From: Clostridia bacterium
GTDB taxonomy: Bacteria; Bacillota; Clostridia; Oscillospirales; Acutalibacteraceae
Direction: 5' to 3'
DNA: 64,000 nucleotides
Assembly: GCA_017465825.1 (NCBI GenBank)
Contig: JAFTVI010000036.1
Span: 11,174-75,173, forward strand
Made by a program: the position numbers and the translations under genes. The notes beneath the pieces were generated by a model. The model was given only the letters and a program-made list of their open reading frames with translations. It had not been told where the DNA came from and searched no databases. Below, in pieces: positions 7,016 through 42,447 of the stretch (its first letter is position 1; each line of letters starts with the position of its first letter).

Positions 7016-7027
7016 AATATATCCTCC

Positions 7028-8419: not shown

Positions 8420-8422
8420 CCT

Positions 8423-10219: not shown

Positions 10220-10255
10220 TGGTATACCTCCGAGTGTATTTCATTTCAATTTATT

Positions 10256-10284
10256 ATTTTATCACATAATAAGCAAAATGTCAA
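10256..10284 (-). promoter_or_regulatory. sigma-A type promoter of the pseudokinase-tldD-pmbA operon
   Basis: Minus strand TTGACA (10284-10279), 17 nt, TAAAAT (10261-10256), about 36 nt before ATG 10219. Confidence 0.7.
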
Positions 10285-10285
10285 T

Positions 10286-20800: not shown

Positions 20801-22473
20801 GTTATAACCAACTCGCCGTAGGAGTTGATTTCAGTTGATGTGATGCCGATACCGTCTTCACCGTCAGCACCGTTTACACCGTTAGTGCCATCCTTACCAT
20901 CTGCACCTTTGATTGTACCGAGATTGAGCTGTGTGCCGTTTGACAATGTAATTTCAAGCTGTGCATTATCATTGATTATGATGTTTTCAATGCCTACACC
21001 GTCAACACCGTCTTTTCCGTTAGTACCGTCCTTGCCATCTGTGCCATTGATACCGTCTTTACCGTCAGTGCCGTTTGTTCCATCTTTGCCGTTTGCTCCG
21101 ACAACTACGCCTAAATTATCAACGATATTATTTGAATAAGTGAGAACAAGCTCACCTTTGGCGTTGATTTCAGACTTGACAATACTTATACCGTCTTCGC
21201 CGTCTTTACCGTCAGCACCATCTTGTCCATCTTTGCCATCAACACCATCTGTGCCGTTAATGCCGTCTTTACCGTCTGAACCGTTAGTGCCGTCAATACC
21301 ATCTTTACCGTCAGCGCCGATAACAACACCAAGATTTGAACGCTGATTATTTGAATATGTAAGCACAAGTTCACCGTCGGAGTTGATTTCAGCCCCGACT
21401 ACACCTATACCGTCAGCACCGTCTTTGCCGTCTGCGCCGTTGGTGCCATTGATACCGTCCTTGCCGTCGACACCATCAGCACCGTCAGTCCCGTTTTCAC
21501 CTACTATTACACCAAGGTTTGCGGTTGTGCCGTCTGAATATGTAAGAACAAGCTCACCTGCATTGTTAATAACGGATGCTGTTATGCTGATACCGTCAGT
21601 ACCATTTATACCGTTAATGCCGTCCTTACCGTCAACGCCATCAGTACCGTTAGTACCATCAGCACCGTCTTTGCCATCAACACCGTCTTTGCCATCTTTT
21701 CCATGGGTGCCATCCTTGCCGTCAATGCCGTTTGTACCGTCAATGCCATCTTTACCGTCAGCACCGATGACAACTCCCAGATTAGCACTCTGACCGTTGG
21801 AGTATGTAAGTACTAATTCGCCGTTTTCGTTGATTTCGGAATTTGTTACGCTTACGCCGTCAGCACCGTTCATTCCAACAACTTTGTCAAGATTTATGCT
21901 TGTACCGTCGGAGAATGATAAAACAAGCTGACCGTTTTCATTTACATTTGCAGATGAAATGCTTGTGCCGTCTTTACCGTCAACGCCATCTTTACCGGCA
22001 GTGCCATTTGTGCCGTTAACTCCGTTTGTGCCGTTCTTGCCGTCAGCACCTTTTGCATTACCTAAATTGATAACAGTACCGTCCGAAAGCGTAAGCAAAA
22101 GCTCACCCTTTGAAGAAAAGGATGCTGTTTTTATGCTTGCAGAGTTCTTAGAAGCGGTTGCTTCAAGTGAAGCTGCCCACTCCGATTCAGTTCCGCTGTA
22201 ACCGTTTTCAACAGCGATCTCATAGGCTGATTTGCCTGAAAGAGAATCAAGCCATTCCTGCACAGTGCCTTCATAGCCCTGCTGAACGGCAAGCTCATAA
22301 GCAGATAAGCCGTTTGTAACTGTTGATGAAGCAGGTGTGCCGCCGTTTCTGTTGTGAATTATGGTTGCAATTCCTGCCGAAATGCCAATCATCAGCAAAA
22401 TCATAATAATTGCTACAATTATTTTTGTAATAACTATCTTCGTTCCCCTTTTTTCTTGTGTTTTTTGCTCCAT
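17815..22473 (-). CDS. giant surface protein: N-terminal TM anchor, ~20 beta-module/collagen-like (Gly-X-Y) units, BspA-type leucine-rich repeats
   Basis: Trimmed to ATG 22473 (SD GGAGGA), 1552 aa. TM IVITKIIVAIIMILLMIGISAGIATII. Repeats ..EINxxGELVLTYSDGTxxNLGVVVG(xDG)n. C-terminal LRRs ..C..L..ITIP.SVT.I...AF..C.. Confidence 0.9.
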   Translation of the reverse strand: MEQKTQEKRGTKIVITKIIVAIIMILLMIGISAGIATIIHNRNGGTPASSTVTNGLSAYELAVQQGYEGTVQEWLDSLSGKSAYEIAVENGYSGTESEWAASLEATASKNSASIKTASFSSKGELLLTLSDGTVINLGNAKGADGKNGTNGVNGTNGTAGKDGVDGKDGTSISSANVNENGQLVLSFSDGTSINLDKVVGMNGADGVSVTNSEINENGELVLTYSNGQSANLGVVIGADGKDGIDGTNGIDGKDGTHGKDGKDGVDGKDGADGTNGTDGVDGKDGINGINGTDGISITASVINNAGELVLTYSDGTTANLGVIVGENGTDGADGVDGKDGINGTNGADGKDGADGIGVVGAEINSDGELVLTYSNNQRSNLGVVIGADGKDGIDGTNGSDGKDGINGTDGVDGKDGQDGADGKDGEDGISIVKSEINAKGELVLTYSNNIVDNLGVVVGANGKDGTNGTDGKDGINGTDGKDGTNGKDGVDGVGIENIIINDNAQLEITLSNGTQLNLGTIKGADGKDGTNGVNGADGEDGIGITSTEINSYGELVITYSNGTTTNLGVVVGTDGKDGVNGKDGQDGQDGKNGSDGKDGTNGVDGISVTKTEINDNGELVIYYSDNTSANLGVVVGTKGKDGTDGTDGIDGTDGVNGKDGIGVSKSEINADGELVITYSDGTVQNLGAVVGSDGENGTNGTDGIGVTKTEINDNGELVVYYTDGTSANLGVVVGEDGQDGKDGQDGTDGKDGINGTDGKDGVNGADGKDGEDGIGISDVTVNADGELVLTFSDNSEINLGCIVGKDGTDGQNGSDGTDGKDGTDGIGIEKSEINSDGELVITYTDGTSETLGVVVGEDGKDGTNGTDGKDGADGKNGIGIEKTEINSDGELIVYYTDETSANLGVVVGADGQNGTNGIDGTDGKDGENGKDGVGIDTVNIDDDGNLTVTLTNGTTLTLGNIKGTDGIGIKKSEINANGELILTYTNGTITNLGKVVGADGKNGENGKDGVGISDVTISSEGALNITLSSGTVINLGNIKGKDGNGITKSQINSDGELVLTYTDGTSTNVGKVVGADGEDGQNGSDGVGIKTVTLSSTGELIITLTDNSVTNLGNIKGEKGDKGDKGEDGRGIASMEIVDGELVITYTDNTTEYAGYVDDAVADSVSMLNFTELDDGTYSVAIKSEYKDVATSISIPSNYKGKTVSTIKSRGFDGATALQNITIPKSITKIESIAFGSCSNISDFYYKGDITDWYNVSLIGGDSSTPFYDSNAEKRTMYVGNKNTAVTDLVIPNTVTTVSSFAFYNNTALESITFSESVSELKGNAFSYCENLKIVDFSKATNLTSIPSRSFLNCSSLESITLPENIQSIGTQAFQYCKSLKNIDMSYASKLTEIGSGAFMFCYNLENILLPNNITEIASETFYGCENLSNITIPNSVTSINSYAFYGCSSLTEITIPTAVKRIGEYAFYKSGLTSATFEVTDGWKAGGEDFSYTILRNGVEKTMTYSLTDPAKAASALKTRLKYTYSLGDESAGTSDELRYLEWYSMEWTRE
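19020..22134 (-). repeat. intragenic degenerate tandem-repeat array (about 20 units)
   Basis: The coding repeats of the giant gene, with unit length varying with the number of GGN-NNN-GAY/AAY triplets. Mirror Pro/Ser-rich ORFs appear on the plus strand. Confidence 0.85.
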
Positions 22474-22485
22474 ATAATGTTCCTC

Positions 22486-22509
22486 CTGATTGAAGAATTT
22501 TTCAATCAG
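22486..22509. promoter_or_regulatory. 9-6-9 perfect palindrome between the -10 box and SD of the giant gene (candidate operator)
   Basis: CTGATTGAA-GAATTT-TTCAATCAG, 22486-22494/22501-22509. Confidence 0.5.
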
Positions 22510-22510
22510 T

Positions 22511-22539
22511 ATTATACAATACAAAATGTGAACTGTCAA
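22511..22539 (-). promoter_or_regulatory. consensus sigma-A promoter of the giant surface-protein gene
   Basis: Minus strand TTGACA (22539-22534), 17 nt, TATAAT (22516-22511). Confidence 0.75.
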
Positions 22540-22603
22540 CACTAATTGTGACTATTTAAACATATTAAGTCTTTTTCATTTAAGATATATACGAGGTGAT
22601 TTG

Positions 22604-24216: not shown

Positions 24217-24314
24217 AAATTTGACCGCCTTTCATTTACACATAATTATTTTATCAAATTTTATTGAGCATAGCAATATAAAATGTAGTTTTTTTATTTT
24301 TTGTAAGAAAATAT

Positions 24315-24343
24315 TTGACATAAGTTCTCAATTGTTATACAAT
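24315..24343 (+). promoter_or_regulatory. sigma-A promoter of the aminotransferase/aldolase pair
   Basis: TTGACA (24315-24320), 17 nt, TACAAT (24338-24343). Confidence 0.7.
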
Positions 24344-24379
24344 ATGTATGAATATTATTTCCAAGGAGGTAAATTTTTT

Positions 24380-25861
24380 ATGGACACTCGTTTCGCAATA
24401 GAGAATTATTGTGACACACAGGCTATCACAAAACAGCTCGATGAGCTGATTGCACAGCCTATTTACACCATTAAACCCGAAGTTTTAAAGGACTATGAGG
24501 AAAATTATTTTGACAAAAAGTGCGCAAAGTCAAAGGAAATGATTGAAGAAGCAAAGCAGGTTATCCCCGGCGGCGTTCAGCACAACCTTGCTTTTAACTA
24601 TCCTTTCCCCATCGTAATCACAAAAGCTGACGGAATGAAGCTTTACGATGTTGACGGAAACGAATATTTCGATTTCCTTCAGGCAGGCGGCCCCACAGTT
24701 CTCGGCTCCAATCCTCCCGAAGTCCGTGAGCAGGTTATCGACCTTCTCAACACCTGCGGCCCCTCAACAGGTCTTTTCCACGAGTTTGAGTATAAGCTTG
24801 CAAAGAAGATCTCCGACAGCGTTGAAACCGTAGATATGTTCCGTATGCTCGGTTCAGGTACAGAGGCTTGTATGGCAGCTGTCCGTGTTGCAAGACTTGC
24901 TACAAAGAATAAAAACATCGTTAAGATGGGCGGCGCTTATCACGGCTGGTCAGATCAGTTAGGCTGGAGTATCCGTGTTCCCGGTTCAAAGTTTACACAG
25001 ACACACGGTGTACCCCTTTATCTCTATAAGCATACTCAGGAGTTCTTCCCCAACGACCTCGATTCTCTCGAGAGAGTTCTCAGAAGAAATCAGCTTTGCG
25101 GCGGTACTGCTGCTGTTTTCATTGAGCCTATCGGCCCCGAAAGCGGTACAAGACCTCTTGATTTCGATTTCAATAAGGGCGTTGAAAGACTTTGCCGTAA
25201 GTACGGCGCACTTCTCGTATTCGATGAGGTTGTTACAGGCTTCCGTATCGGTATGGCAGGTGCTCAGGGTTACTTCGGCGTATCTCCTGACCTTACAATC
25301 TTCGGTAAGGTAATTGCCGGCGGATATCCCGGTGCAGGCGGTATCGGCGGTAAGAAGGAATATATGAAGTACCTCGGCGCAGGTCTTGATGCAAGCGGCG
25401 AAAAGGTCAAGAAAGCATTTATGGGTGGCACAATGGCTGCTACTCCCATTTCCTGTGTTGCAGGTTACTATACTCTTGAAGCTATTGATAAGACAAATGC
25501 TTGCCAGAAGGCCGGTCAGATGGGTGACAGACTCACAAAGGGTCTTCAGGATCTCATCAAGAAGTACAATCTTCCCTTTGTAGCATTCAACCAGGGTTCA
25601 GTATGTCATCTTGAAACTGTCGGCACAATGCACTTTGCTGTTGATTGGGCAAGACCCTGGACAATTCCCAACGTTCTTTCACAGACAAGCGAAAGAAAGA
25701 AGGAAATGCAGCACATCGGTGCAGCATATATGGCAGAAGGCCTTGTTACTCTTGCAGGTTCAAGACTTTATACATCTGCTGCATATACTCCCGAGCTTAT
25801 CGACGAAGCACTTACCAGATTTGATAAGGTATTTGCAAACGTTGCTCTTAAGCAGGACTGA
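24380..25861 (+). CDS. class III (GSA-aminomutase-like) PLP-dependent aminotransferase
   Basis: Trimmed to ATG 24380 (SD GGAGGT), 493 aa. GGAYHGW, FDEVVTGFR, and FGKVIAGG with the PLP lysine. Confidence 0.8.
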   Translation: MDTRFAIENYCDTQAITKQLDELIAQPIYTIKPEVLKDYEENYFDKKCAKSKEMIEEAKQVIPGGVQHNLAFNYPFPIVITKADGMKLYDVDGNEYFDFLQAGGPTVLGSNPPEVREQVIDLLNTCGPSTGLFHEFEYKLAKKISDSVETVDMFRMLGSGTEACMAAVRVARLATKNKNIVKMGGAYHGWSDQLGWSIRVPGSKFTQTHGVPLYLYKHTQEFFPNDLDSLERVLRRNQLCGGTAAVFIEPIGPESGTRPLDFDFNKGVERLCRKYGALLVFDEVVTGFRIGMAGAQGYFGVSPDLTIFGKVIAGGYPGAGGIGGKKEYMKYLGAGLDASGEKVKKAFMGGTMAATPISCVAGYYTLEAIDKTNACQKAGQMGDRLTKGLQDLIKKYNLPFVAFNQGSVCHLETVGTMHFAVDWARPWTIPNVLSQTSERKKEMQHIGAAYMAEGLVTLAGSRLYTSAAYTPELIDEALTRFDKVFANVALKQD

Positions 25862-25884
25862 TATTTTGAAAGAGGTATAATAAT

Positions 25885-27111
25885 ATGGACATTTTGGAAG
25901 CAAAATCCGAAGTTGTCAAAGCCGGTCTTGAGCTTGTTCAATCCGGTCTTATAGCTCGTACTTGGGGAAATGTCAGCTGTCGTGTTGACGATGAATATTT
26001 CGTTATCACTCCCAGCGGCAGAAGCTATGAATCTCTCACTCCCGATGATATTGTTCTCGTTAAAATTGAGGACTGCTCATACGATTCTGAGATCAAGCCT
26101 TCCTCCGAAAAGGGAATACACGCTATGGCGTATAAAATGCGCAGTGATGTTAACTTTGTTATTCATACACATCAGAAAAATGCATCCGCAGTAAGCTTCC
26201 TCGGTTACGATATAAATATGCTTTCCGAGGACAGCCGCGAGATAATCGGTGCAGATATTCCCGTTGCATCATACGGACTTCCCGGCACAGGCAAGCTCCG
26301 CAAAGGCGTAACTGCCGCTCTTGAGCGTTCAGCATCAAAGGCTGTTGTTATGGCTCATCACGGCGCTCTGTGTATGGGTACAGATTATGAAGATGCATTT
26401 AAAGTTGCCGCTGAGCTCGAAAAAGTCTGCGAGGAGTTCCTTCTTGACAGATTGCACATCGTTTCAGGTAAGGTAAGCGACAATATTGCCGCTGTTGCCG
26501 AGCATATCGCAGAGGTAAGTGAGGGTGCCAAGAAACAGGCTATGATTTTTGCCCCTTATACGTCCGAGCGTGAAGGCGATACGATGCTTATGAATCCTGC
26601 TGAGGGCGGCGAATCCGTACGCATTGACCTTTCAAACGGCAATGAGGTTTCTCCCTGTGATGAATATCCCGAGAGTGCAGAGCTCCACAGAGCTATTTAC
26701 AATTCCCGTAAGGATGTAAACTGCATTATTCATTCTAAGAAGCCTGAAATTCTTTCAGCATCAAAAATGGGCGGTACGTTCAAGCCTCTGCTTGATGATT
26801 TTGCTCAGCTTATAGGTGTTACACTTCGCACAGGCGAGTATAACCCTGCAAATACGGCAAAAACCGCTAAAAAGGTTGTTAAAAAGCTTAAGGGCAGAAA
26901 TGCCGCATTGCTTAAGGACAACGGAGCTGTTTGCGTAGCAGGCGATATGTACGATGCTGAGGCTGTTGAAATGGTTCTTGAAAAAGAGCTTCGTACAGAT
27001 GCGGCGGCTAAAATGATCGGTGACGCAAAATATATTAACCCCGTTGAAGCACATCTTATGAGATTTATCTATAAGACAAAGTACTCCAAGAAGGCTAAGA
27101 CAAATAAATAA
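25885..27111 (+). CDS. tandem class II aldolase/adducin-domain protein
   Basis: 408 aa. The N-domain keeps E..IH, HTH and HHG metal ligands. The C-domain (from aa ~265) has the same fold pattern with ligands replaced (IIHSKK, KDNGAV). Confidence 0.75.
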   Translation: MDILEAKSEVVKAGLELVQSGLIARTWGNVSCRVDDEYFVITPSGRSYESLTPDDIVLVKIEDCSYDSEIKPSSEKGIHAMAYKMRSDVNFVIHTHQKNASAVSFLGYDINMLSEDSREIIGADIPVASYGLPGTGKLRKGVTAALERSASKAVVMAHHGALCMGTDYEDAFKVAAELEKVCEEFLLDRLHIVSGKVSDNIAAVAEHIAEVSEGAKKQAMIFAPYTSEREGDTMLMNPAEGGESVRIDLSNGNEVSPCDEYPESAELHRAIYNSRKDVNCIIHSKKPEILSASKMGGTFKPLLDDFAQLIGVTLRTGEYNPANTAKTAKKVVKKLKGRNAALLKDNGAVCVAGDMYDAEAVEMVLEKELRTDAAAKMIGDAKYINPVEAHLMRFIYKTKYSKKAKTNK

Positions 27112-31670: not shown

Positions 31671-32120
31671 TCACAGTATCTGCATAATTTCGTCACCGTT
31701 ATCATCGTGCAGACCGAATGCTTCGCTTTTATCGCTTAAAAATACTTTAAGATATTCTCCGAAATTCGGTGACAATTCAAATGAATTGAGAGAATTTTTG
31801 CTTGCCCAGAAAACTTCTCCTTCTTCTGTTTTGTCTAAAAGCGTACCCGAATATTCATTTGTTTTGAAAAGTAATACAAAATATCTCCTATCCGTATCTT
31901 TATGACACCAATGTACTGTTCCGCAGAGCTTCGGATTTTTTATATCAAGTCCCGTTTCTTCCTTAGCCTCGCGGATAACGCTGTGCACAAAGCTTTCACC
32001 TTTTTCAATATGACCGCCGGGAAAAGTTATTCCTTTCCAGTATTTAACACGGTTCTGCACAACCACATCGCCGTTTTCGGGATTTTCAATCATAATCATA
32101 TTTGTAAGTTCGCATTTCAT
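31671..32120 (-). CDS. NUDIX hydrolase
   Basis: 149 aa with a complete Nudix box, GHIEKGESFVHSVIREAKEETGL. Confidence 0.85.
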   Translation of the reverse strand: MKCELTNMIMIENPENGDVVVQNRVKYWKGITFPGGHIEKGESFVHSVIREAKEETGLDIKNPKLCGTVHWCHKDTDRRYFVLLFKTNEYSGTLLDKTEEGEVFWASKNSLNSFELSPNFGEYLKVFLSDKSEAFGLHDDNGDEIMQIL

Positions 32121-32171: not shown

Positions 32172-35100
32172 TTAATATTCTATATAGCCTTCGAAAATAA
32201 GACTTGTATTACCTGTAAGTGAAACACACTCATCGGTGTAATTTACGATAAGGTCGCCGCCTTTGAGCTTGACTGTAATATCTGCACCCTTTTCGCAAAG
32301 ACCTAATTCGCAAGCCGCCGCAACTGCCGCACAGGCACCTGTACCGCAAGCATAGGTTTCGCCGTTACCGCGTTCCCATACACGCATACGGATTGTGCGC
32401 TTATCGACAACTCTTACAAATTCCGTGTTGATTTTTTCGGGGAAGTATTTAGCGTTTTCAAATTCGGGACCGATCTCCTGAAGATTGTATGCGTCAATGT
32501 GAGTGCCGAATACTACACAATGGGGGTTGCCCACAGATACACAGGTTACGTTGTATTCCTTGCCGTCAATTATAACGGGCTGGTCAATAACCTTGCCGGA
32601 AGTGATGTTTGTGGGTATTTTTTCAGCCTCGAATTCAGCCTTACCCATCATTACCTTAACAGCCTTGACCTTGTTGTTCTCTGTGTAAAGGTGTATTCTC
32701 TTAAGACCGACGGGGGTTTCAATTGTAAGATGTGTGTTGTTTACAATGCCGTGATCGTAGAGATATTTACCTGCACAGCGTAAGCCGTTACCTGCAATAT
32801 AACCCTTTGAGCCGTCTTTGTTGAACATCAGCATCTTAGCATTTGCAATATCGGATTTTTCAATCAGAACGATGCCGTCACTGCCGATACCGTAATGTCT
32901 GTTGCAGAAGTTGACTGCAAGCACCTCGGGAGCTGTAATTGCGCCGTCAAGATTGTCAAAGAAGATAAAGTCGTTACCGGAACCCTGCATTTTTGCAAAT
33001 TTGAGCTTCATAGGCTCCGAGCGGAGAGCGTTGATGTTAACAAGCTCTGTATTCTGCTGATTAAATCCGCTTGCAAGGATATCAGCAAGAACGTTTGCTG
33101 TGTCAATTGAAGTAAGAGTAGCAACAGAGAGCTGAAGAGCGCGTCTGTGAAGCTTGATGAAATCGTCAACAACATCAAGGGGAGTGCCTGTGTATACAAT
33201 ATACTTGATTTTACCGCTTTCAAGCAGATCCATACTTGTGTTGGACTCGTCGTAAAGCTTGTTTACAACAGTTACGTCAATATCAACACTGCCGATTGCC
33301 TTTGCCGTGCCTTCTGTAGCGTAAATCTTAAGACCAAGGTCGTGGAATTTACGAGCAAGCTCAATTACTTCGGGCTTGTCAGCATCCTTGACTGTAATAT
33401 ATACACCCATTTCCTTGCGGTGTGTTTTGGGAGTAATTTCAAAGCCTGCGGAAACAAGACCCTTGAAAAGTGCCTCTTCGATTGTTTTACCGACACCGAG
33501 AACTTCGCCTGTTGACTTCATTTCGGGACCAAGGCTTGAGTTTGCATCAAGCAGCTTTTCAAATGAGAATACGGGAACTTTAACTGCAAAGTAGGGAGGT
33601 GTCTTGTAAAGACCTGTGCCGAAGCCCAAATCTTTAAGGGGAGTACCTGTCATAACCTTTGTTGCAATGTCAACCATAGGTACGCCTGTAACCTTGCTGA
33701 TGTAGGGAATCGTTCTTGATGCTCTGGGATTAACCTCGATAACGTAAAGCTCATTATCGTAAATAAGGTACTGAATGTTAACAAGACCCTTTGTGCCCAG
33801 TGCAAGTGCAAGGTTTGTTGAGCAGTCAATGATTGTCTGCTTCATTGTGTCGCGAAGATTGTAGGGAGGATATACCGCAATTGAGTCACCGCTGTGAACA
33901 CCGGCTCTTTCAATGTGCTGCATAATACCGGGGATAAGAACATCCTTACCGTCGGAAATAACGTCAACCTCAAGCTCTGAACCCATCATATATTTGTCAA
34001 CAAGTACGGGGTTTTCAATTTTGCCGGAGAGAATGATGTTCATATACTTATAAACATCATCGTCGTTGTATGCGATAGTCATATTCTGACCGCCGATAAC
34101 GTATGAAGGACGGAGAAGAACGGGGTACTCAAGGGTGTGAGCCGCATTGAGCGCTTCTTCAAGAGTGATAACGCCCATTCCCTTGGGACGCTTGATGTTG
34201 AACTTCTCAAGAAGTGCATCAAAACGCTCTCTGTCCTCAGCAGTGTCAATACCTTCTGCAGACGTGCCGAGAATTGTAAAGCCGTTTTCGTCAAGGAATT
34301 TTGTAAGCTTGATAGCTGTCTGTCCGCCGAAAGCAACAACTATTCCTTCGGGATTCTCTTTCTTTATAACGTTAAGAACGTCTTCGGGAGTGAGAGGCTC
34401 GAAGTAAAGTCTGTCAGCAGTGTCAAAGTCTGTTGAAACAGTTTCGGGGTTGTTGTTGATGATAACAACTTCATATCCAAGCTCTTTGAGTGTCCATACG
34501 CAGTGAACGGAAGAGTAGTCAAATTCGATACCCTGACCGATTCTGATAGGACCTGAGCCGAGAACGATAATCTTCTTTGCAGTGTTATCCTTAAGAAGCT
34601 CTTTTGCTTCGCAGTCCTTGTCGTAGGTTGAATAGAAGTAGGGTGTGGATGCCTTGAACTCAGCCGCACAGGTGTCAACCATCTTGTAGGATGCATCAAG
34701 AGTCATATGCTCTTTTGTTCCGCTGATTCTTTCAAGTGCAGCATCGGGATAGCCGTACTTTTTACCCTGAATATAAAGCTCATCGGTAAGTCTGTTTGCA
34801 ATTGCCTTTTCGTACTGTACAAGATTGTTGAGCTTATCAATAAACCACTCATCAATTTTTGTTATATCGTGGATTGTTTCTGTTGAAACACCTCTCTTAA
34901 GCGCTTCAAAAACAGTGAAAAGACGGATATCATCAACATCTTCAAGCTTTTTAACGATGTCGATTTCGGGATCTGCAAGCTTTTTGAGATTGAGCGTATC
35001 AAGTGAAATTTCAGCACCTCTTACAGCCTTCATAATAGCCGCCTCAAAGCTGGGAGCAATCGCCATAACTTCACCCGTAGCCTTCATCTGTGTGCCGAGC

Positions 35101-36212
35101 TTGCGCTTTGCATTTATGAACTTATCAAAAGGCCATTTTGGGAGCTTGATTACGCAGTAGTCAACGGTAGGTTCGTTACAGGCATAGGTGCAGCCTGTAA
35201 CTTCGTTCCTGATTTCATCAAGAGTATAACCGAGAGCAATCTTAACTGCAACCTTAGCAATCGGGTAGCCCGTAGCCTTTGATGCAAGAGCAGATGAACG
35301 TGAAACTCTGGGGTTAACCTCGATAACCGCATATTCAAATGTTTCGGGGTTGAGAGCAAACTGACAGTTACAGCCGCCTTCGATGCCCAGTGAATCAATA
35401 ATTTTAAGTGATGCACTGCGGAGCATATTGTACTCTTTGTTTGAAAGAGTAACAGCAGGAGCGATAACAATACTGTCACCTGTATGAACACCGACGGGGT
35501 CGAAGTTTTCCATTGAACAAACGGCAATTGAGTTACCCATTGAGTCACGGATAGCTTCAAATTCAATTTCTTTCCAACCGTAGATGTATTTTTCAACAAG
35601 AATCTGATTGATAGGGGAGAGAAGAAGACCGTTGTTGACAATAGGCATAAGCTCTTCTTCGTTGTATGCAACACCGCCGCCTGCACCGCCCAATGTGAAA
35701 GCGGGACGGATGATAACGGGGAAACCGATTTTTCTTGCAATTTCAAGAGCTGTGTCGGGGTCGTTTGCAATATCGGAGGGAATACAGGGCTGACCGATGG
35801 ATTCCATTGTTTCCTTGAACAGCTCTCTGTCCTCACTCTTGTCAATAGCCTCTGCGTTTGTACCGATAAGCTTTACGCCGTGCTTTGCAAGGAAACCGCT
35901 CTTTGCAAGCTGCATACCGATTGTAAGACCTGTCTGACCGCCGAGACCTGCAAGAACGGAGTCGGGCTTTTCTTTCTCGATGATTCTCATTACTGTTTCT
36001 TCTGTAAGAGGCTCGAGATAGATTTCGTCTGCGTTTGCATTATCTGTCATAATGGTAGCAGGGTTTGAGTTGACAAGTACAACGTCAAGACCTTCGTTTT
36101 TAAGAATACGGCAAGCCTGTGTGCCTGCATAGTCAAATTCGGCAGCCTGACCTATAACGATAGGACCTGAACCGATAACAAGTACCTTTTTAATGTCTTT
36201 ATTAAGTGGCAT
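32172..36212 (-). CDS. carB: carbamoyl-phosphate synthase large subunit fused in frame to a DapF-like (diaminopimelate epimerase fold) domain
   Basis: 1346-aa uninterrupted ORF. aa 1-1067 are full-length CarB. aa 1068-1346 (nt 33011-32172) start MKLKFAKMQGSGNDF.. and have the GNPH and ACGTGACAA DapF motifs. Confidence 0.9.
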   Translation of the reverse strand: MPLNKDIKKVLVIGSGPIVIGQAAEFDYAGTQACRILKNEGLDVVLVNSNPATIMTDNANADEIYLEPLTEETVMRIIEKEKPDSVLAGLGGQTGLTIGMQLAKSGFLAKHGVKLIGTNAEAIDKSEDRELFKETMESIGQPCIPSDIANDPDTALEIARKIGFPVIIRPAFTLGGAGGGVAYNEEELMPIVNNGLLLSPINQILVEKYIYGWKEIEFEAIRDSMGNSIAVCSMENFDPVGVHTGDSIVIAPAVTLSNKEYNMLRSASLKIIDSLGIEGGCNCQFALNPETFEYAVIEVNPRVSRSSALASKATGYPIAKVAVKIALGYTLDEIRNEVTGCTYACNEPTVDYCVIKLPKWPFDKFINAKRKLGTQMKATGEVMAIAPSFEAAIMKAVRGAEISLDTLNLKKLADPEIDIVKKLEDVDDIRLFTVFEALKRGVSTETIHDITKIDEWFIDKLNNLVQYEKAIANRLTDELYIQGKKYGYPDAALERISGTKEHMTLDASYKMVDTCAAEFKASTPYFYSTYDKDCEAKELLKDNTAKKIIVLGSGPIRIGQGIEFDYSSVHCVWTLKELGYEVVIINNNPETVSTDFDTADRLYFEPLTPEDVLNVIKKENPEGIVVAFGGQTAIKLTKFLDENGFTILGTSAEGIDTAEDRERFDALLEKFNIKRPKGMGVITLEEALNAAHTLEYPVLLRPSYVIGGQNMTIAYNDDDVYKYMNIILSGKIENPVLVDKYMMGSELEVDVISDGKDVLIPGIMQHIERAGVHSGDSIAVYPPYNLRDTMKQTIIDCSTNLALALGTKGLVNIQYLIYDNELYVIEVNPRASRTIPYISKVTGVPMVDIATKVMTGTPLKDLGFGTGLYKTPPYFAVKVPVFSFEKLLDANSSLGPEMKSTGEVLGVGKTIEEALFKGLVSAGFEITPKTHRKEMGVYITVKDADKPEVIELARKFHDLGLKIYATEGTAKAIGSVDIDVTVVNKLYDESNTSMDLLESGKIKYIVYTGTPLDVVDDFIKLHRRALQLSVATLTSIDTANVLADILASGFNQQNTELVNINALRSEPMKLKFAKMQGSGNDFIFFDNLDGAITAPEVLAVNFCNRHYGIGSDGIVLIEKSDIANAKMLMFNKDGSKGYIAGNGLRCAGKYLYDHGIVNNTHLTIETPVGLKRIHLYTENNKVKAVKVMMGKAEFEAEKIPTNITSGKVIDQPVIIDGKEYNVTCVSVGNPHCVVFGTHIDAYNLQEIGPEFENAKYFPEKINTEFVRVVDKRTIRMRVWERGNGETYACGTGACAAVAAACELGLCEKGADITVKLKGGDLIVNYTDECVSLTGNTSLIFEGYIEY

Positions 36213-37279
36213 TACTTGTCACCTCCCATAAGTGATACGAATTTATCGTAAAGAACAACAGCGTCTGTAGCGCCTTCACATCCGCCGGGATAGAACTGAA
36301 CGGAGAATGCCTTGTCGGCATAATCAATACCTGCACAGGTGTTGTCATTAACATTAATAAAGCTTACCGTGCTGTTTTTGCTGTCAAGTGAATCTGAAAC
36401 AACAGCGTAGCCGTGATTCTGGCTTGTAACAAAAACTTTTCCGCTTGCAAGCTCTTTTACAGGCTGGTTTGAACCTCTGTGACCGTATTTGAGCTTTTCG
36501 GTCTTTGCGCCTGCGGCGAGAGCCATAAGCTGATGACCGAGAGAAATACCGAACATAGGAATTTTACCCATAAGCTTTTTGATCTCAGCAACAATTGCAT
36601 CGCAGTCAGCAGGATCTCCGGGGCCGTTGGATATAACCATTCCGTCAACGCCGAGAGCGAGGATTTCCTCAGCAGTTGTGTTGTAAGGTACAGTTATAAC
36701 AGTGCATCCGCGTGCAAGAAGCTCATTTTCAATTGAAAGCTTTGCACCTAAATCAAGAACTGCAACCTTGTACTTTTCATTTTCTGCAGTGTGTACAGAT
36801 TTTTCGGTACAGCTTACAGCCTTGACTGCATCCTTGATTCTGTATTCTGCGAGGGCCTTTAAATCAACCTTTGAAGGGTCGTCTGTGATACAGGCATTCA
36901 TAACGCCGTTTTCACGGATAATCTTTGTTATTTCTCTTGTATCAACATCGCAGATTGATACAATGTTGCTTTCTGTAAGGAAAGGTAAAATATTTTCTTC
37001 ACATCTGAAGTTTGAAGGCTTCTCACACCATTCTCTTACCACGTAACCGTTTACAACGGATTTATCAAGGAGCTTGTCCTCAGAAATCATACCGTAGTTA
37101 CCGATAAGAGGGAATGTCTGCATAACGATCTGACCGTAATATGCTGCATCAGTCAATGTTTCAATGTAGCCGACCATTCCGGTGGTAAAAACGAGTTCGC
37201 CTGTGACTTCGCCGTCAGCGGCAAAACCCTTACCCTCGAAAATGTGACCGTCCTGCAGAACGATGTACATTTTTTTCAT
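36212..37279 (-). CDS. carA: carbamoyl-phosphate synthase small subunit homologue with inactivated glutaminase triad
   Basis: 355 aa from ATG 37279 (SD AAGGA 8 nt upstream). Aligns along its length to CarA. TAATG overlap with carB. The triad residues are Ser/Tyr/Gly instead of Cys/His/Glu. Confidence 0.85.
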   Translation of the reverse strand: MKKMYIVLQDGHIFEGKGFAADGEVTGELVFTTGMVGYIETLTDAAYYGQIVMQTFPLIGNYGMISEDKLLDKSVVNGYVVREWCEKPSNFRCEENILPFLTESNIVSICDVDTREITKIIRENGVMNACITDDPSKVDLKALAEYRIKDAVKAVSCTEKSVHTAENEKYKVAVLDLGAKLSIENELLARGCTVITVPYNTTAEEILALGVDGMVISNGPGDPADCDAIVAEIKKLMGKIPMFGISLGHQLMALAAGAKTEKLKYGHRGSNQPVKELASGKVFVTSQNHGYAVVSDSLDSKNSTVSFINVNDNTCAGIDYADKAFSVQFYPGGCEGATDAVVLYDKFVSLMGGDK

Positions 37280-37322
37280 AAGAATCATCCTTTATCTGAA
37301 AAAATCTTAATTTACTGCTGTT

Positions 37323-38246
37323 TTATTCTTTTTCCATATACTGGTCACGCATAAGCTTGACTAATACTGCTTTCTGGGCGTGAAGTCTGTTTTCAGCCTC
37401 TTCAAAAATCTCATTTGCGTGAGCTTCAAATACTTCAGCTGTAATTTCTTCTTCTCTGTGAGCAGGCAGACAGTGAAGCACCATAGCATCAGGATGCGCA
37501 ACGGACATAAGTGAAGAATTTATCTGATAGCCTGCAAAAATCTTCTTTCTTTCTTCGGCTTCACTTTCTTCACCCATAGATGCCCATACGTCGGTGTAAA
37601 GCACGTCTGCATTCTTTGCCGCCTCGTAAATATCAGTTGTAAGAGTGAATCTGCCCGTTGTTTCAGCCCATTTTATGATGTCAGCATCAGGCTCGTAGCC
37701 TGCGGGGCAGGCAACAGCCACTTCCATACCTACCTTAAGACAGCCTACGATAAGCGAGTTTGCCATATTGTTACCGTCACCGATAAATGTGAGCTTCATA
37801 CCCTTGAAGGTGTTTTTGAATTCACGGATGGTCATAAGGTCTGCAAGCACCTGACAGGGATGGCAGTAATCTGTAAGACCGTTGATTATGGGTATTGAAC
37901 CGTACTGAGCAAGAGTTTCAACTTCTTCCTGATCGAAGGTTCTTATCATAATGCCGTCAAGGTATCTTGAAAGAACTCTTGCGGTATCTTCAACAGGCTC
38001 ACCTCTGCCAAGCTGAGTGTTAGCATTGCTTAAAAACAGCGCGGAGCCGCCAAGGTCGTACATACCTACTTCAAAGGAAACTCTTGTTCTTGTGGATGAC
38101 TTTGCAAAAATCATACCGAGAGTTTTACCCTTGAGGTAATGATGCTCAATATTGTGCTTTTTCTCGTATTTTAACTGATCTGCAAGATTGAGGATTGTAA
38201 GAATCTCTCTTTCCGAAAGATCGCCGAGCTTGAGTAAATGCTTCAT
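37323..38246 (-). CDS. argF: ornithine carbamoyltransferase
   Basis: 307 aa. STRTRVSFE, HPCQ, DVWASMG, HCLPA. ATGA overlap with argD. Confidence 0.9.
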   Translation of the reverse strand: MKHLLKLGDLSEREILTILNLADQLKYEKKHNIEHHYLKGKTLGMIFAKSSTRTRVSFEVGMYDLGGSALFLSNANTQLGRGEPVEDTARVLSRYLDGIMIRTFDQEEVETLAQYGSIPIINGLTDYCHPCQVLADLMTIREFKNTFKGMKLTFIGDGNNMANSLIVGCLKVGMEVAVACPAGYEPDADIIKWAETTGRFTLTTDIYEAAKNADVLYTDVWASMGEESEAEERKKIFAGYQINSSLMSVAHPDAMVLHCLPAHREEEITAEVFEAHANEIFEEAENRLHAQKAVLVKLMRDQYMEKE

Positions 38247-39406
38247 TCTTCAATGACCTCCGTTATAATATCCATCGCTTTTTTCAGTTCCTCATCGGAA
38301 ATGTTAAGCGGCGGTAAAAGTCTGATTTTGGTTTTTGCCGTTAGAGGAAGTACACCTCTTTCAATGCACTTTGAAACGATTGCTTTTGAATCCTTTGTTG
38401 TTTCAATGCCGAGCATAAGACCCATTCCGCTGACGCTTTTTACATTTTTGCATTCGCTGAGTCTTGCTTTTATGTACTCGCTCTTTTTTACAACTCCGTT
38501 AAGGAATTCGTCATCAAGTCGTTTTACAACGCTGAGTGCGCCTGCGGCAACTGCAGGATTCATACCGTATGTTGAGCCGTGCGAGCCGGGAGTGAGCGTG
38601 TCAGCAGTCTTTTCGCCGAACATACAGACACCCATAGGCAGACCGCCTGCAATACCCTTTGCGGTTGATACGATATCAGGCATTATATCAAAATTCTGAT
38701 ATGCATACATCTTGCCTGTTCTGCCGTTACCTGTCTGCACTTCGTCAACTATTAACAGTATATCACTTTCTTTGCAAAAATCATATACTTTTTTTATAAA
38801 ATTTTTATCTAAAGCAATAACTCCGCCTTCGCCCTGTACAATTTCCATCATAATTGCACAAACATTGCCGTTGCAGATTTCTTTCAGCTTCTCAAAATCG
38901 TTTGCGGGCGCATATGCAAATCCCTCAGGGAACGGACCGAATGTGGTGTGGAATGTGTCCTGTCCCGTTGCGGTAAGAGTTGCAAGAGTTCTGCCGTGAA
39001 AGCTCTGATTGAGAGTTACAATAACGTTTCTGTCGGGATTATTGTATTTATCAAGAGAGTATTTTCTTGCTGTTTTTATTGCACATTCATTGGCTTCAGC
39101 ACCGGAATTGCCGAAGAAGCACTTCTTCATTCCCGATTTTTCGCAAAGAATTTTTGCAAGCTCTGCGCCGGGGGTGGTGTAGTAAAGATTTGACGTGTGC
39201 TGAATTGTATTAAGCTGCTGTGCTACGGCATCTGCCCATTCTTTGTCGCAGTAGCCGAAGATGTTAACGCCGATACCGCTGCCCATATCAATGTATTCCT
39301 TGCCGTTTTCGTCAACTGCAACTGCACCGTGACCGCTTACAAGCGTGACGGGATACCTTGCATAAGTATTGGCTATATACTTTTTATCTGTTTCAATAAC
39401 TGTCAT
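38243..39406 (-). CDS. argD: acetylornithine aminotransferase
   Basis: 387 aa, class III aminotransferase positioned within the arg operon. Confidence 0.85.
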   Translation of the reverse strand: MTVIETDKKYIANTYARYPVTLVSGHGAVAVDENGKEYIDMGSGIGVNIFGYCDKEWADAVAQQLNTIQHTSNLYYTTPGAELAKILCEKSGMKKCFFGNSGAEANECAIKTARKYSLDKYNNPDRNVIVTLNQSFHGRTLATLTATGQDTFHTTFGPFPEGFAYAPANDFEKLKEICNGNVCAIMMEIVQGEGGVIALDKNFIKKVYDFCKESDILLIVDEVQTGNGRTGKMYAYQNFDIMPDIVSTAKGIAGGLPMGVCMFGEKTADTLTPGSHGSTYGMNPAVAAGALSVVKRLDDEFLNGVVKKSEYIKARLSECKNVKSVSGMGLMLGIETTKDSKAIVSKCIERGVLPLTAKTKIRLLPPLNISDEELKKAMDIITEVIEE

Positions 39407-39415
39407 AAGATTGCC

Positions 39416-40270
39416 TCATTCTACAAACATTGTACCGATACCTTCATCGGTGAGAGTTTCAATAAGAATTGAGTGGGGGATTCTGCCGTCTATGATGAAT
39501 ACTTTGTTAACACCCATTCTTATAGCTTCCGTACAGCACTGCACCTTGGGGATCATACCGCCCGATATAATACCTTCGTGCATAAGCTCGGGAGCATCAC
39601 TTACATAAAGCTTTTTGATAAGCGAATCAGGATCATCCTTATCACGGAGAAGTCCGGGGATGTCGCTCATATTTATAAGACTTTCAGCCTTGAGCGCCCC
39701 TGCAATATAAGCCGCCGCAGTGTCAGCGTTGATGTTGTAAGTGTTATTTTCATCATCATAGCCGATTGTGGAAATAACAGGAATGTAATCTCTTTCAAGA
39801 AGGTCGGTGATAAGCTCAGTGTTTATGTTTACAATGTTGCCCACATAACCGTGAACGTCATCGAGCTTTTCAGCTTTGATCATATGGTCATCAACACCGC
39901 ACAGACCTACAGCCTTGCCGCCCTTGTTGTGAATCTGATTTACAAGATTCTTGTTGATTTTACCTGCAAGAACCATCTGTACAATGTCTGCAGTTTCTTT
40001 GTCTGTAACACGCAAGCCGTCAACAAATTCGGACTTTTTGCCTGTTTTGTTGAGCATTTCGTTGATTTCGGGACCGCCGCCGTGAACAAGGACAACCCTT
40101 ATTCCGATAAGTGAAAGAAGAACGATATCACCGATAACAGCTTCTTTGAGTTCTTCGCTTATCATTGCGTTGCCGCCGTATTTTACAACGATAGTCTTGT
40201 TTCTGTATTTCTGTATATAGGGGAGAGCCTGTGTAAGAATTTCTGCTCTCTGCGGATTTGTAATATTCAT
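39416..40270 (-). CDS. argB: acetylglutamate kinase
   Basis: 284 aa from ATG 40270 (SD GGTGA 5 nt upstream; the track start 40279 is GTG). ..IVVKYGGNAM.. AAK family. Confidence 0.9.
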   Translation of the reverse strand: MNITNPQRAEILTQALPYIQKYRNKTIVVKYGGNAMISEELKEAVIGDIVLLSLIGIRVVLVHGGGPEINEMLNKTGKKSEFVDGLRVTDKETADIVQMVLAGKINKNLVNQIHNKGGKAVGLCGVDDHMIKAEKLDDVHGYVGNIVNINTELITDLLERDYIPVISTIGYDDENNTYNINADTAAAYIAGALKAESLINMSDIPGLLRDKDDPDSLIKKLYVSDAPELMHEGIISGGMIPKVQCCTEAIRMGVNKVFIIDGRIPHSILIETLTDEGIGTMFVE

Positions 40271-40280
40271 ATCTGTCACC

Positions 40281-41495
40281 TTAAGTTCTGTAATCTCCGT
40301 TGATTTTAACGTAATCGTATGTCAGGTCGCAACCTCTTGCAACTGCCGAAGTGTCACCGTCGTTGAGATTGATGTTGACCTTGATTTCATCTTCAAGAAG
40401 AATCTCTTTGGCAATTTCTTCGCTGAACTCCACGCCTGCGCCGTTTTCACAGACAACAACAGTGCCTTTCGCAGATGTGAAGCTTACGTCAATCTTTGTT
40501 ACGTCAACGTCTGCACCGCTGTAACCTATTGCACAAAGTACACGTCCCCAGTTTGCATCAGCACCGAACATTGCCGCCTTGAAAAGGGAAGAGCAGATAA
40601 CGGACTTTGCTACAGTCTTTGCAGTCTGCCAATCCTTGCCGCCGTCAACAAAACATTCAACAAGCTTTGTTGCACCTTCGCCGTCTTTTGCAATTGCTTT
40701 GCAGAGCTTTTCCGTAATCATAGCAAGAGCATTGCAGAATATATCAAAATCCTCGCCCTCTGCAACGATTTCGGCATTTTCAGCCATACCGTTTGCCATA
40801 ACTGCAACCATATCGTTTGTTGATGTGTCGCCGTCAATGCTTATCATATTAAAGCTCTTCTGTGCATCGGCATAAAGTGCCTTGTGGAGCATTTCGGGGG
40901 AGATTGCCGCGTCAGTTGTGATAAACACAAGCATCGTTGCCATGTTGGGGTGAATCATACCCGAGCCCTTTGCAATACCGCCCATTCTGCACTCTTTGCC
41001 GCCGATATTGAAGCTTACTGCAAATTCCTTGAGTATAGTATCGGTAGTCATTATTGCCTCAGCCGCATTGCCGCTGTTATCATAGCCTAAATTGCTTACA
41101 AGCTCGTTCATACCCTCTGCAATGGGAGTAATGTCAAGAGGCTGACCGATAACGCCTGTTGATGCAACGATAACATCGTTCTTATCTATCGAAACAGCAT
41201 CAGCCGTGAGCTCACACATCTTTTCTGCAATTTCAATGCCGTTTGCATTGCAGGTGTTAGCGTTGCCGCTGTTGCAGATAACAGCCTGAGCCTTTCCGTC
41301 TGCAATGTTTGCTTTTGTAACATAGATGGGAGCGCCTTTTACAAGATTAAGAGTGTAAATAGCCGCCGCAGATGCTTTCTTATCGCTCACGATAAGTGCA
41401 AGATCCCTTTTTGTCCTGTTTTTTCTGATTCCGCAGTGAATACCGCTTGCTTTAAATCCTTTTGCGGCACAAACGCCGCCGTTGATATATTCCAT
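40281..41495 (-). CDS. argJ: bifunctional glutamate N-acetyltransferase / amino-acid acetyltransferase
   Basis: 404 aa from ATG 41495 (SD AAAGGA), after the argC stop. Autoprocessing site ..HPNMATMLVF.. Confidence 0.9.
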   Translation of the reverse strand: MEYINGGVCAAKGFKASGIHCGIRKNRTKRDLALIVSDKKASAAAIYTLNLVKGAPIYVTKANIADGKAQAVICNSGNANTCNANGIEIAEKMCELTADAVSIDKNDVIVASTGVIGQPLDITPIAEGMNELVSNLGYDNSGNAAEAIMTTDTILKEFAVSFNIGGKECRMGGIAKGSGMIHPNMATMLVFITTDAAISPEMLHKALYADAQKSFNMISIDGDTSTNDMVAVMANGMAENAEIVAEGEDFDIFCNALAMITEKLCKAIAKDGEGATKLVECFVDGGKDWQTAKTVAKSVICSSLFKAAMFGADANWGRVLCAIGYSGADVDVTKIDVSFTSAKGTVVVCENGAGVEFSEEIAKEILLEDEIKVNINLNDGDTSAVARGCDLTYDYVKINGDYRT

Positions 41496-41508
41496 TTCAA
41501 AATTCCTT

Positions 41509-42447
41509 TCAAAGTACAAGTGAGCTTGTTTCATCGGTGCCCATAGAGATGTTCATACACTGAATTGCCGCACCCGATGCGCCCTTGCCTAAATTATCAA
41601 AAATACTTGTGATGAATATTCTTTCATCGTTGCCTGAAATAAATATTTTCATACTGTCTTTTCCCGTCATTTCGTTGGCAGAAACGAAGCCTGCAGGCAC
41701 ATCGCCGCCGTGAAGGGGAAGAACAGTTATAAACCTGCTGTCTTTGTAAAACTGAGCAAACATACTGTAAACATCGCTAAGAGTTGCATTGCCTGCAAGA
41801 TTTGTAAACAGATTTACTGTTGTAGCCATTCCGCTGTAATAGTCATCAACAATGGGTGTGAATATGGGAGCATATTCAAGACCCGTAACAGCCTTCATCT
41901 CTTTGAGATGCTTGTGATTCTGTGTAAGACCGTACTGTCTGGGAGCGAAAAGGTCGTCAGTCTTGCCGTGTTCGTATTGCTCGATCATTTTTTTGCCGCC
42001 GCCGCTGTAGCCTGTAAGTGAATGCGAAACAACGGGATAATCTTTCGGCATTATTCCCGATGCGATAAGGGGATACACGATTGAAATGAATCCGCTTGCG
42101 TGACAGCCGGGAACGGCAATTCTTTTTGATGTTTCAATTTTCTTTCTGTGTTCAGCCGATAACTCTGCAAAACCGTACGCCCAGTCGGGAGAAGTTCTGT
42201 GTGCCGTTGATGTATCAATGATAACAGTTTTGTCATTTTCGCAAAGTGAAACAGATTCTCTTGCGGCATCGTCGGGCAGGCAGAGGAATGTTATATCACT
42301 CTCATTTATTAATCTTCGTCGCTCCTGTGCGTCTTTGCGCTTTTCTTCGCTTATATGCATAAGTGTGATGTCATCACGCTTGCTTAAACGGTCAAACAAT
42401 CTCAGACCTGTTGTACCCTGGTTTCCGTCAATAAATACCTTTGTCAT
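41509..42447 (-). CDS. argC: N-acetyl-gamma-glutamyl-phosphate reductase (short type)
   Basis: 312 aa, ..VPGCHASGF.. active-site Cys. First gene of the arg cluster. Confidence 0.85.
   Translation of the reverse strand: MTKVFIDGNQGTTGLRLFDRLSKRDDITLMHISEEKRKDAQERRRLINESDITFLCLPDDAARESVSLCENDKTVIIDTSTAHRTSPDWAYGFAELSAEHRKKIETSKRIAVPGCHASGFISIVYPLIASGIMPKDYPVVSHSLTGYSGGGKKMIEQYEHGKTDDLFAPRQYGLTQNHKHLKEMKAVTGLEYAPIFTPIVDDYYSGMATTVNLFTNLAGNATLSDVYSMFAQFYKDSRFITVLPLHGGDVPAGFVSANEMTGKDSMKIFISGNDERIFITSIFDNLGKGASGAAIQCMNISMGTDETSSLVL

Follow-up and report, generated by a model that had tools for sequence, protein, structure and literature searches.

A carbamoyl-phosphate synthase large subunit fused to a DapF-like domain lacking one catalytic cysteine, from a fusion family of gut Clostridia

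The window analyzed here, a stretch of 64,000 nucleotides from a Clostridia bacterium (contig JAFTVI010000036.1 of assembly GCA_017465825.1), carries an argCJBDF-carA arginine operon whose last gene joins carB, encoding the large subunit of carbamoyl-phosphate synthase (CPS), in frame to a sequence related to dapF, encoding diaminopimelate (DAP) epimerase (Table 1). The product is one polypeptide in which the arginine-operon CPS large subunit is followed, after its allosteric domain, by a DapF-derived domain. Re-reading of the minus strand confirmed the single open reading frame (ORF) of 1346 amino acids, with all of its coordinates, that an earlier sequence-only reading of this DNA had described, and its division into a full CarB (residues 1-1067) and a full DapF fold (residues 1068-1346) was borne out by matches to the CarB equivalog NF003671 (residues 1-1046; 1431 bits, cut-off 599) and to the DapF model TIGR00652 (residues 1071-1344; 259-264 bits, cut-off 114.65). 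The CarB part also matches TIGR01369 (1402 bits, cut-off 1027) and contains two CPSase_L_D1, two CPSase_L_D2, one CPSase_L_D3 and one MGS domain; the DapF-like domain scores 184 bits against PF01678. The order of the CarB domains, with a terminal MGS-like allosteric domain, and the translationally coupled carA upstream are as in E. coli CarAB (1jdb/1bxr). Unlike the E. coli protein, the CarB of the window has an extra domain of 279 residues past the allosteric domain.

The junction between the two parts (CGC TCG GAG CCT ATG AAG) contains neither a stop codon nor a linker. The most trivial explanation would be an artefact, with a stop codon misassembled or missequenced, or else two genes, with DapF translated from an internal ATG, and it draws on the ATG at the junction and on a GGAG located 3 nt 5' of it, the sole Shine-Dalgarno-like element there. 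However, four contigs of 50-200 kb encode an identical protein, which NCBI lists under MBQ8210834.1 with the name 'carbamoyl-phosphate synthase large subunit [Clostridia bacterium]'; its cluster at 90% identity comprises 71 proteins, many from other assemblies and 1347 aa in length. Therefore, the junction is not a misassembly. The frame is thus intact in the independent sequence data against which the sequence-only reading had proposed to check it, and it is likewise unbroken in 80 species. The junction Met (Met1068) is present in 7 of 61 full-length homologues and absent in the other 54, so that separate initiation of DapF is not conserved; with the 3-nt spacing of the Shine-Dalgarno-like element, separate translation was rejected as a feature of the family, in line with the weak case for independent initiation that had been made from the sequence. 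The 21-residue junction segment shows no insertions or deletions across the 61 full-length sequences, and Arg1064 within it is invariant (61/61). As to gene structure, the artefact reading is already refuted, and an artefact or a pair of genes deserves practically no credence.

One genome per GTDB species was scanned for the fusion. Over 600 stretches matched, of which the best 80 loci, from 80 assemblies, were analyzed. A protein search, with the last 60 CarB residues and the DapF domain as the query, returned more than 100 proteins with both MGS and DAP_epimerase domains. The 80 loci belong to Oscillospiraceae, Oscillibacter, Ruminococcus, Christensenellaceae, Anaerotruncus, Faecousia, Saccharofermentans and other Clostridia, and stem from the guts of humans, mice, chickens and ruminants. 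Where a locus leaves enough room, a single unbroken frame of roughly 1340-1430 codons is almost always present (the frame of one locus, L009, is longer). The sequence-only reading had suggested a search for orthologous fusions; that search yielded 80 GTDB species with the same continuous frame. The fusion is no peculiarity of one genome but a conserved family, present in 80 or more species of Oscillospirales-type Clostridia from gut and rumen, including the cultured Ruminococcus bromii. The sequence-only reading knew of no described CarB-DapF fusion; among the papers searched, likewise, none dealt with such a fusion or with a natural Ala73 DapF, and public databases label the fusion proteins only as CarB. 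In one assembly (GCA_054290425.1, locus L002, 7307-11350) the fusion was called as two pieces of 878 aa and 449 aa, which looks like a frameshift or a sequencing error. Fragments of this kind, which begin at a conserved internal Met of CarB (M898 or M846), account for many of the 449-aa or 501-aa 'proteins' in databases.

In the DapF-like domain of the window, the first catalytic thiol (Cys73) is absent and the second (Cys217) is present. The motif GKSCGNGLRC of 2otn aligns with GYIAGNGLRC in the fusion, and alignment to solved DapFs upheld both the replacement of the first Cys by Ala and the retention of the second, as read from the sequence. Across 81 loci, the Cys73 position is occupied by Ala (56), Cys (14), Gly (10) or Ser (1), so that only small residues replace the thiol, and Cys217 is retained in 80. 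The codons at this position (TGC for Cys, GGC/GGT for Gly, AGC for Ser and GCC/GCA/GCG for Ala) can be linked by changes of one nucleotide at a time, from Cys via Gly to Ala. Fusions with both cysteines (hereafter Cys-type, as opposed to A/G/S-type) occur in Ruminococcus (loci L055-L077) and include R. bromii WP_117912838.1, a protein of 1350 aa with 7763 members in its 90% cluster. They share the architecture, junction length and invariant Arg of the window fusion; identity to it is about 68% for the CarB core and 55% for the DapF domain. The sequence-only reading had named many characterized homologues with Ala as grounds for abandoning its view of the domain; homologues with Ala are indeed many (56 of the 81 loci), Ala being the prevailing residue of an entire clade, but characterized ones did not emerge.

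Neighbor-joining trees were calculated for the DapF domain and for CarB. The DapF-domain tree, rooted with the E. coli and H. influenzae enzymes, places the Cys-type fusions basally and the Ala-type fusions, including that of the window, in a derived clade; on the CarB tree, the two types form sister clades. Two Gly-type fusions (L078 and L082) fall within the Cys-type clade on the CarB tree, which implies that the thiol was lost more than once.

The two types also differ in their genomic neighborhood. An arginine operon lies upstream of A/G/S-type fusions only, and the order argC-argJ-argB-argD-argF-carA-fusion seen in the window is repeated in about 22 loci of this type. In contrast, Cys-type fusions are preceded only by carA and, unlike the window gene, have dapL and/or pyrG downstream: dapL (TIGR03542, 514 bits, cut-off 365) follows the fusion in L055, L056, L058, L068 and L069, and pyrG follows it in L061, L064 and L077, the last of which also has dapL after pyrG. 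Neither dapL nor pyrG was found within 10 kb of the A/G/S-type fusions. No dap or lys genes, second dapF, ddh or dapL were found in the 64-kb window or in the 10 kb past its right end, nor was a second dapF or ddh found within 10 kb in any related locus. In one relative (P0137), an unfused dapF is followed by a gene for a class I/II aminotransferase, a candidate dapL. The nearest standalone DapFs with a named source come from Erysipelotrichaceae (Absiella/Amedibacillus), not from Oscillospirales.

The small subunit encoded by the neighboring carA (NF009475, 424 bits) has lost its glutaminase triad, as the sequence-only reading had proposed: Ser249, Tyr333 and Gly335 replace Cys269, His353 and Glu355 (C269S, H353Y and E355G). 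Because the triad is dead, an ammonia-dependent CPS is predicted; unlike in E. coli CarAB, glutamine hydrolysis is not expected, and free ammonia should serve instead. Mitochondrial CPS I (5dou/6uel) offers a functional analogy only: its glutaminase-like part also lacks the catalytic Cys, it uses free ammonia and it depends on a ligand bound in its C-terminal regulatory region, but it is a CarA-CarB fusion without a DapF-like domain, and the ligand is N-acetylglutamate. Of the loci with an assessable CarA, 30 of 42 Ala-type and 9 of 11 Cys-type loci have an intact triad; a dead triad or a missing carA is seen with about 30% of the Ala-type fusions, with all seven Gly-type fusions and with the single Ser-type fusion (Gly/Ser versus Ala, p = 2e-4). 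An obligatory coupling between the fusion and a dead CarA was rejected on these counts, and the dead CarA is not a consistent companion of the fusion. Loss of the CarA triad is a recurrent trait of the clade and no fixed partner of the loss of Cys73. The 'remodelled CPS complex' that had been read into this combination may describe the locus.

Degeneration around the fusion takes several forms. In L009 (Oscillospiraceae bacterium RGIG2118, 6461-10996), the N-terminal domain of CarA (residues 8-168) stands in frame with CarB and the DapF-like domain in 1512 codons, and the glutaminase domain is deleted. A carA gene is absent before carB in L023, L040, L067, L071 and L089. The carB of L089 (3884-6969) has no DapF-like domain and ends with a real stop after ..VDINNM; it directly follows argC-J-B-D, without carA or argF, appears to be frameshifted (pieces of 723 aa and 322 aa) and is followed by a gene for a metallo-beta-lactamase-like protein (HxHxDH motif). 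P0185 (692 aa) and P0256 (1046 aa) show the reciprocal decay: carA is decayed and CarB is truncated, with scores under the model cut-offs, whereas the attached DapF is intact and of the Cys-type. In the loci L085 and L086 (8001-10079) and L087 (8001-11141), which are of this reciprocal kind, the truncated CarB-like N-terminal part (55 and 412 bits, below the cut-offs) is joined to an intact DapF with two cysteines, and the carA upstream in L085 and L086 lacks the GATase domain.

Except for Cys73, the DapF active site is well preserved in the window and its clade. When 68 A/G/S-type domains were set against 14 Cys-type fusions and 110 standalone DapFs, only two positions, C73 and G8, proved to be at least 85% conserved in the standalone DapFs yet lost in the A/G/S-type. 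Among the 68 domains, N64, N190, E208, R209 and G218 are 100% conserved, N75, N157, H159 and C217 98.5% and G74 97%. Conservation reaches at least 97% in ten of the 12 residues of the pocket, compared with 55 of 279 columns overall (hypergeometric p = 2e-6). The residues of the distal site (N64, N157, N190, R209 and E208) are all present in the window protein and 98-100% conserved in the clade. In DapF, the three Asn residues are hydrogen-bonded to DAP's distal carboxylate, R209 forms a salt bridge with it and E208 binds the distal amine; these same residues are replaced in PddB, a DapF homologue with another substrate (PMC8225329). Thus, the domain resembles DapF (B. anthracis 2otn, H. influenzae 1gqz/2gke) in its TIGR00652 and PF01678 scores and two-lobed fold and is identical to it in Cys217 and all distal DAP-binding residues, but it lacks the Cys73 thiol and hence the defining thiol/thiolate pair. 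It also differs from DapF in being the C-terminal domain of CarB, not a free protein, and in not being located beside lysine/DAP genes.

The proximal site is more variable. N11 is Asn in 65% of the A/G/S-type domains and mostly Asp in the rest (N11 to Asp in 21 of the 81 loci), and the second Gly of the GNG motif (G76) varies among loci. One could therefore suppose that the domain senses ornithine, citrulline or arginine, not DAP, for feedback control of the arginine-operon CPS, with the conserved distal site holding the alpha-amino-acid end and an enlarged proximal site accommodating the head group. That only the proximal site is remodelled (C73 to Ala, Gly or Ser throughout, N11 and G76 as above), that the arginine-operon context is confined to the A/G/S-type, and that a DapF homologue for a ureido amino acid exists (7vdy) all fit such a sensor. 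However, N11 and the GNG motif are canonical in the window protein, where C73A is the sole departure from a working site, and the carboxylate-binding helix N-termini are kept, which fits DAP better than a cationic head group. An arginine-pathway sensor is the most doubtful of the functional explanations considered.

The sequence of the domain shows no sign of relaxed constraint relative to the Cys-type. Within the A/G/S-type fusions (50 full-length sequences), pairs of sequences are on average 73% identical over the CarB core and 59% over the DapF-like domain, versus 77% and 67% within the Cys-type fusions (11 sequences); the ratio of DapF-domain to CarB-core divergence is 1.56 and 1.51, respectively, and this near-equality implies that the DapF-like domain is not decaying. 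A domain made redundant by another route to meso-DAP could still have been kept as a structural relic for the folding, stability or oligomerization of CarB. DapF is a dimer, and the fixed junction length and invariant Arg1064 agree with a structural role, as do the loss of the domain in some nested lineages and the reciprocal decay of CarB in P0185 and P0256, where DapF is kept, showing that the fusion constrains deletion. Nevertheless, a relic fails to predict polar ligand-binding residues conserved at 97-100%, and Cys217 with them, in a domain of about 59% identity, which makes this explanation improbable, if slightly less so than the arginine-pathway sensor.

Residues 898-1346 were modelled with AlphaFold2 using 65 homologues, at a mean pLDDT of 85.8 and a pTM of 0.74, with most of the DapF part above 90. 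The best Foldseek match of the model was 9mro, a ligand-bound DapF (TM 0.91, root-mean-square deviation 2.1 A), followed after other DapFs by PhzF, proline racemases and trans-3-hydroxy-L-proline dehydratases at 13-16% identity.

Pillai et al. 2006 and Koo and Blanchard are said to have established Cys73 as the base for L,L-DAP and Cys217 as the base for meso-DAP; epimerization reportedly needs both thiols and is lost in single-Cys mutants. Cys-to-Ser mutants of DapF-family enzymes have less than 0.1% activity left (PMC8225329), and the DapF double mutant C73A/C217A is inactive (PMC6061791). From the published Cys mutants of DapF-family enzymes we infer that epimerase activity has been lost in the window protein, and the doubt of the sequence-only reading about canonical two-base epimerization is supported by the incomplete thiol pair and the near-inactivity of those mutants. 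A relocated catalytic Cys was considered and rejected: 'AGNC' occurs in 10 of the 81 loci and C27 in 85% of the clade, so that neither is universal, and both are absent in the window.

The main rival to a loss of function is a one-thiol enzyme. It could be a slow or water-assisted DAP epimerase, the only DapF of the organism, or it could catalyze a new one-base reaction on a DAP-like substrate, with alpha-proton exchange and beta-elimination as in trans-3-hydroxy-L-proline dehydratase as candidates. Cys217 is kept in 67 of the 68 A/G/S-type domains together with the whole pocket, the constraint equals that of the catalytic Cys-type, and the Erysipelotrichaceae origin of the nearest named standalone DapFs leaves no obvious second DapF of the lineage. 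Relatives of the fold with one Cys (6r76, 4k7g) are real enzymes, and Koo and Blanchard reportedly found that single-Cys DapF mutants eliminate HF from 3-fluoro-DAP. On the other hand, the Cys-to-Ser mutants argue against it, none of Ala, Gly and Ser can serve as a base, and dapL is no longer linked to the fusion in the genome. Nor has the vicinity of the active site gained a conserved residue: the positions specific to the clade (N20, E51 and R200, and also C27, which is replaced by Ala in the window) map to strand ends by alignment reading. The trans-3-hydroxy-L-proline dehydratases (6r76, 4k7g) and PhzF belong to the same superfamily, have one or both Cys replaced and use one-base chemistry, but they differ in their pockets and carry Thr (dehydratase) or Glu (PhzF) in place of Cys, not Ala or Gly. 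The window domain, with Ala instead of Thr and 13-16% identity, does not qualify as such a dehydratase and resembles it in principle only. A one-thiol enzyme is possible, if on the unlikely side, and clearly less doubtful than a relic or an arginine-pathway sensor.

The tentatively preferred reading, held with somewhat less than even confidence, is that of a pseudo-epimerase that may still bind DAP, or something closely similar, and would serve CPS as an accessory module with a probably regulatory role. It is based on the intact and constrained pocket, the small size of the residues replacing Cys73, the lost linkage to dapL and the position of the domain after the allosteric domain of an arginine-operon CPS. 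In the proposed course of events, carB and dapF would first have been neighbors with dapL downstream; they would then have fused into a bifunctional CarB-DapF with both cysteines, in which the fused DapF stayed a pathway enzyme, as it presumably still does in Ruminococcus, where this ancestral form appears to survive beside dapL and/or pyrG. In the clade of the window, the fused gene would have become the CPS gene of the arginine operon, and Cys73, the thiol that would deprotonate L,L-DAP, would have given way to small residues along a path TGC to GGC to GCN, with Cys217 and the residues around the distal L-amino-acid end kept by purifying selection. The domain would have ceased to epimerize DAP at a useful rate yet would still close around DAP or a very similar L-amino acid, most likely as a regulatory, ligand-binding accessory to CPS; we infer both the binding of a ligand and its coupling to CPS activity.

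Several observations weigh against a pseudo-epimerase of this kind. Chemistry accounts for the near-invariance of Cys217 more naturally than binding alone does, and if the genome has no other DapF, Ddh or DapF2, the domain may have to be catalytic. Unfused CarBs such as that of L089 nest inside the Ala-type clade on the CarB tree, which implies that the CPS can do without the DapF-like domain; searches with the CarB C-terminus for such unfused relatives gave mostly short fragments, and L089 is the one clear case verified. A fixed packing of the domain on the allosteric domain is predicted with moderate confidence (pTM 0.74), and a link between DAP and arginine synthesis has no established physiological logic.

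Further genes of the window are included in Table 1. A NUDIX hydrolase gene lies 52 nt downstream of the fusion. In E. coli, DapF binds and activates the Nudix enzyme RppH (complex 6d13; PMC6061791), a precedent for DapF as a modulating partner. However, no homologue of the Nudix gene of the window was found in the 80 related loci, and a Nudix partner by analogy with RppH was rejected. The other genes listed include one for a probable surface or adhesion protein, a class III aminotransferase gene followed by one for a protein with two class II aldolase/adducin domains, and a TldD/PmbA metallopeptidase pair.

Table 1. Features of the carB-dapF-like locus and other genes of the window (positions refer to the 64,000-nt stretch)
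Feature	Coordinates	Strand	Remarks
Whole carB::dapF-like ORF	32172..36212	-	1346 codons; TAA stop 32172-32174
CarB part, residues 1-1067	33012..36212	-	two ATP-grasp halves, oligomerization domain, MGS-like allosteric domain
MGS-like allosteric domain of CarB, residues 948-1034	33111..33371	-	PF02142; immediately 5' of junction
Linker-less junction, residues 1055-1075	32988..33050	-	constant length in 61 full-length homologues
DapF-like domain, residues 1068-1346	32175..33011	-	TIGR00652 264 bits; PDB match 2otn 3.7e-63
GCA, Ala1140, catalytic Cys73 position	32793..32795	-	alignment to solved DapFs
TGC, Cys1289, equivalent to catalytic Cys217, kept	32346..32348	-	alignment to solved DapFs
carA, small subunit	36212..37288	-	overlaps carB by TAATG; triad dead
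TCT codon of CarA C269S	36542..36544		
argF, argD, argB, argJ, argC	37323..42447	-	directly upstream, co-oriented
NUDIX hydrolase gene	31671..32120	-	149 aa
Probable surface/adhesion protein	17815..22542	-	1575 aa; collagen triple-helix repeats and BspA-type leucine-rich repeats
Class III aminotransferase, then protein with two class II aldolase/adducin domains	24221..27111	+	aminotransferase 546 aa, with long N-terminal extension; aldolase/adducin protein 408 aa
TldD/PmbA metallopeptidase pair	5711..8419 and 8423..10219	-	adjoins PASTA-domain Ser/Thr kinase

CarB and DapF are known kinds of protein, and the family formed by their fusion is unreported. Its members are carried by abundant bacteria of the gut and rumen, the keystone species R. 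bromii among them, under the sole name 'carbamoyl-phosphate synthase large subunit', and pathway reconstruction may consequently overlook a genuine DapF in the Cys-type or wrongly assume one in the Ala-type, changing predictions of lysine/DAP auxotrophy. The family also represents a natural experiment in pseudoenzyme evolution, in which one bifunctional ancestor would have met four fates: both activities kept, the DapF thiol lost, CarB and CarA decayed around an intact DapF, or the domain dropped. If the one-thiol domain indeed binds a ligand and communicates with the allosteric domain, this would be a new mode of CPS regulation. A bolder and rather doubtful extension is that the pseudo-epimerase serves clade-wide as a sensor, of DAP or of an arginine-pathway amino acid in a remodelled proximal site, at the allosteric end of the arginine-pathway CPS; it would then couple cell-wall/lysine or arginine precursors to the supply of carbamoyl phosphate in dominant gut Oscillospirales, with glutamine given up as the nitrogen donor in about a third of the lineages. 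The frequent death or deletion of the CarA glutaminase, together with the fusion, points to an ammonia-dependent and differently controlled arginine synthesis in gut anaerobes.

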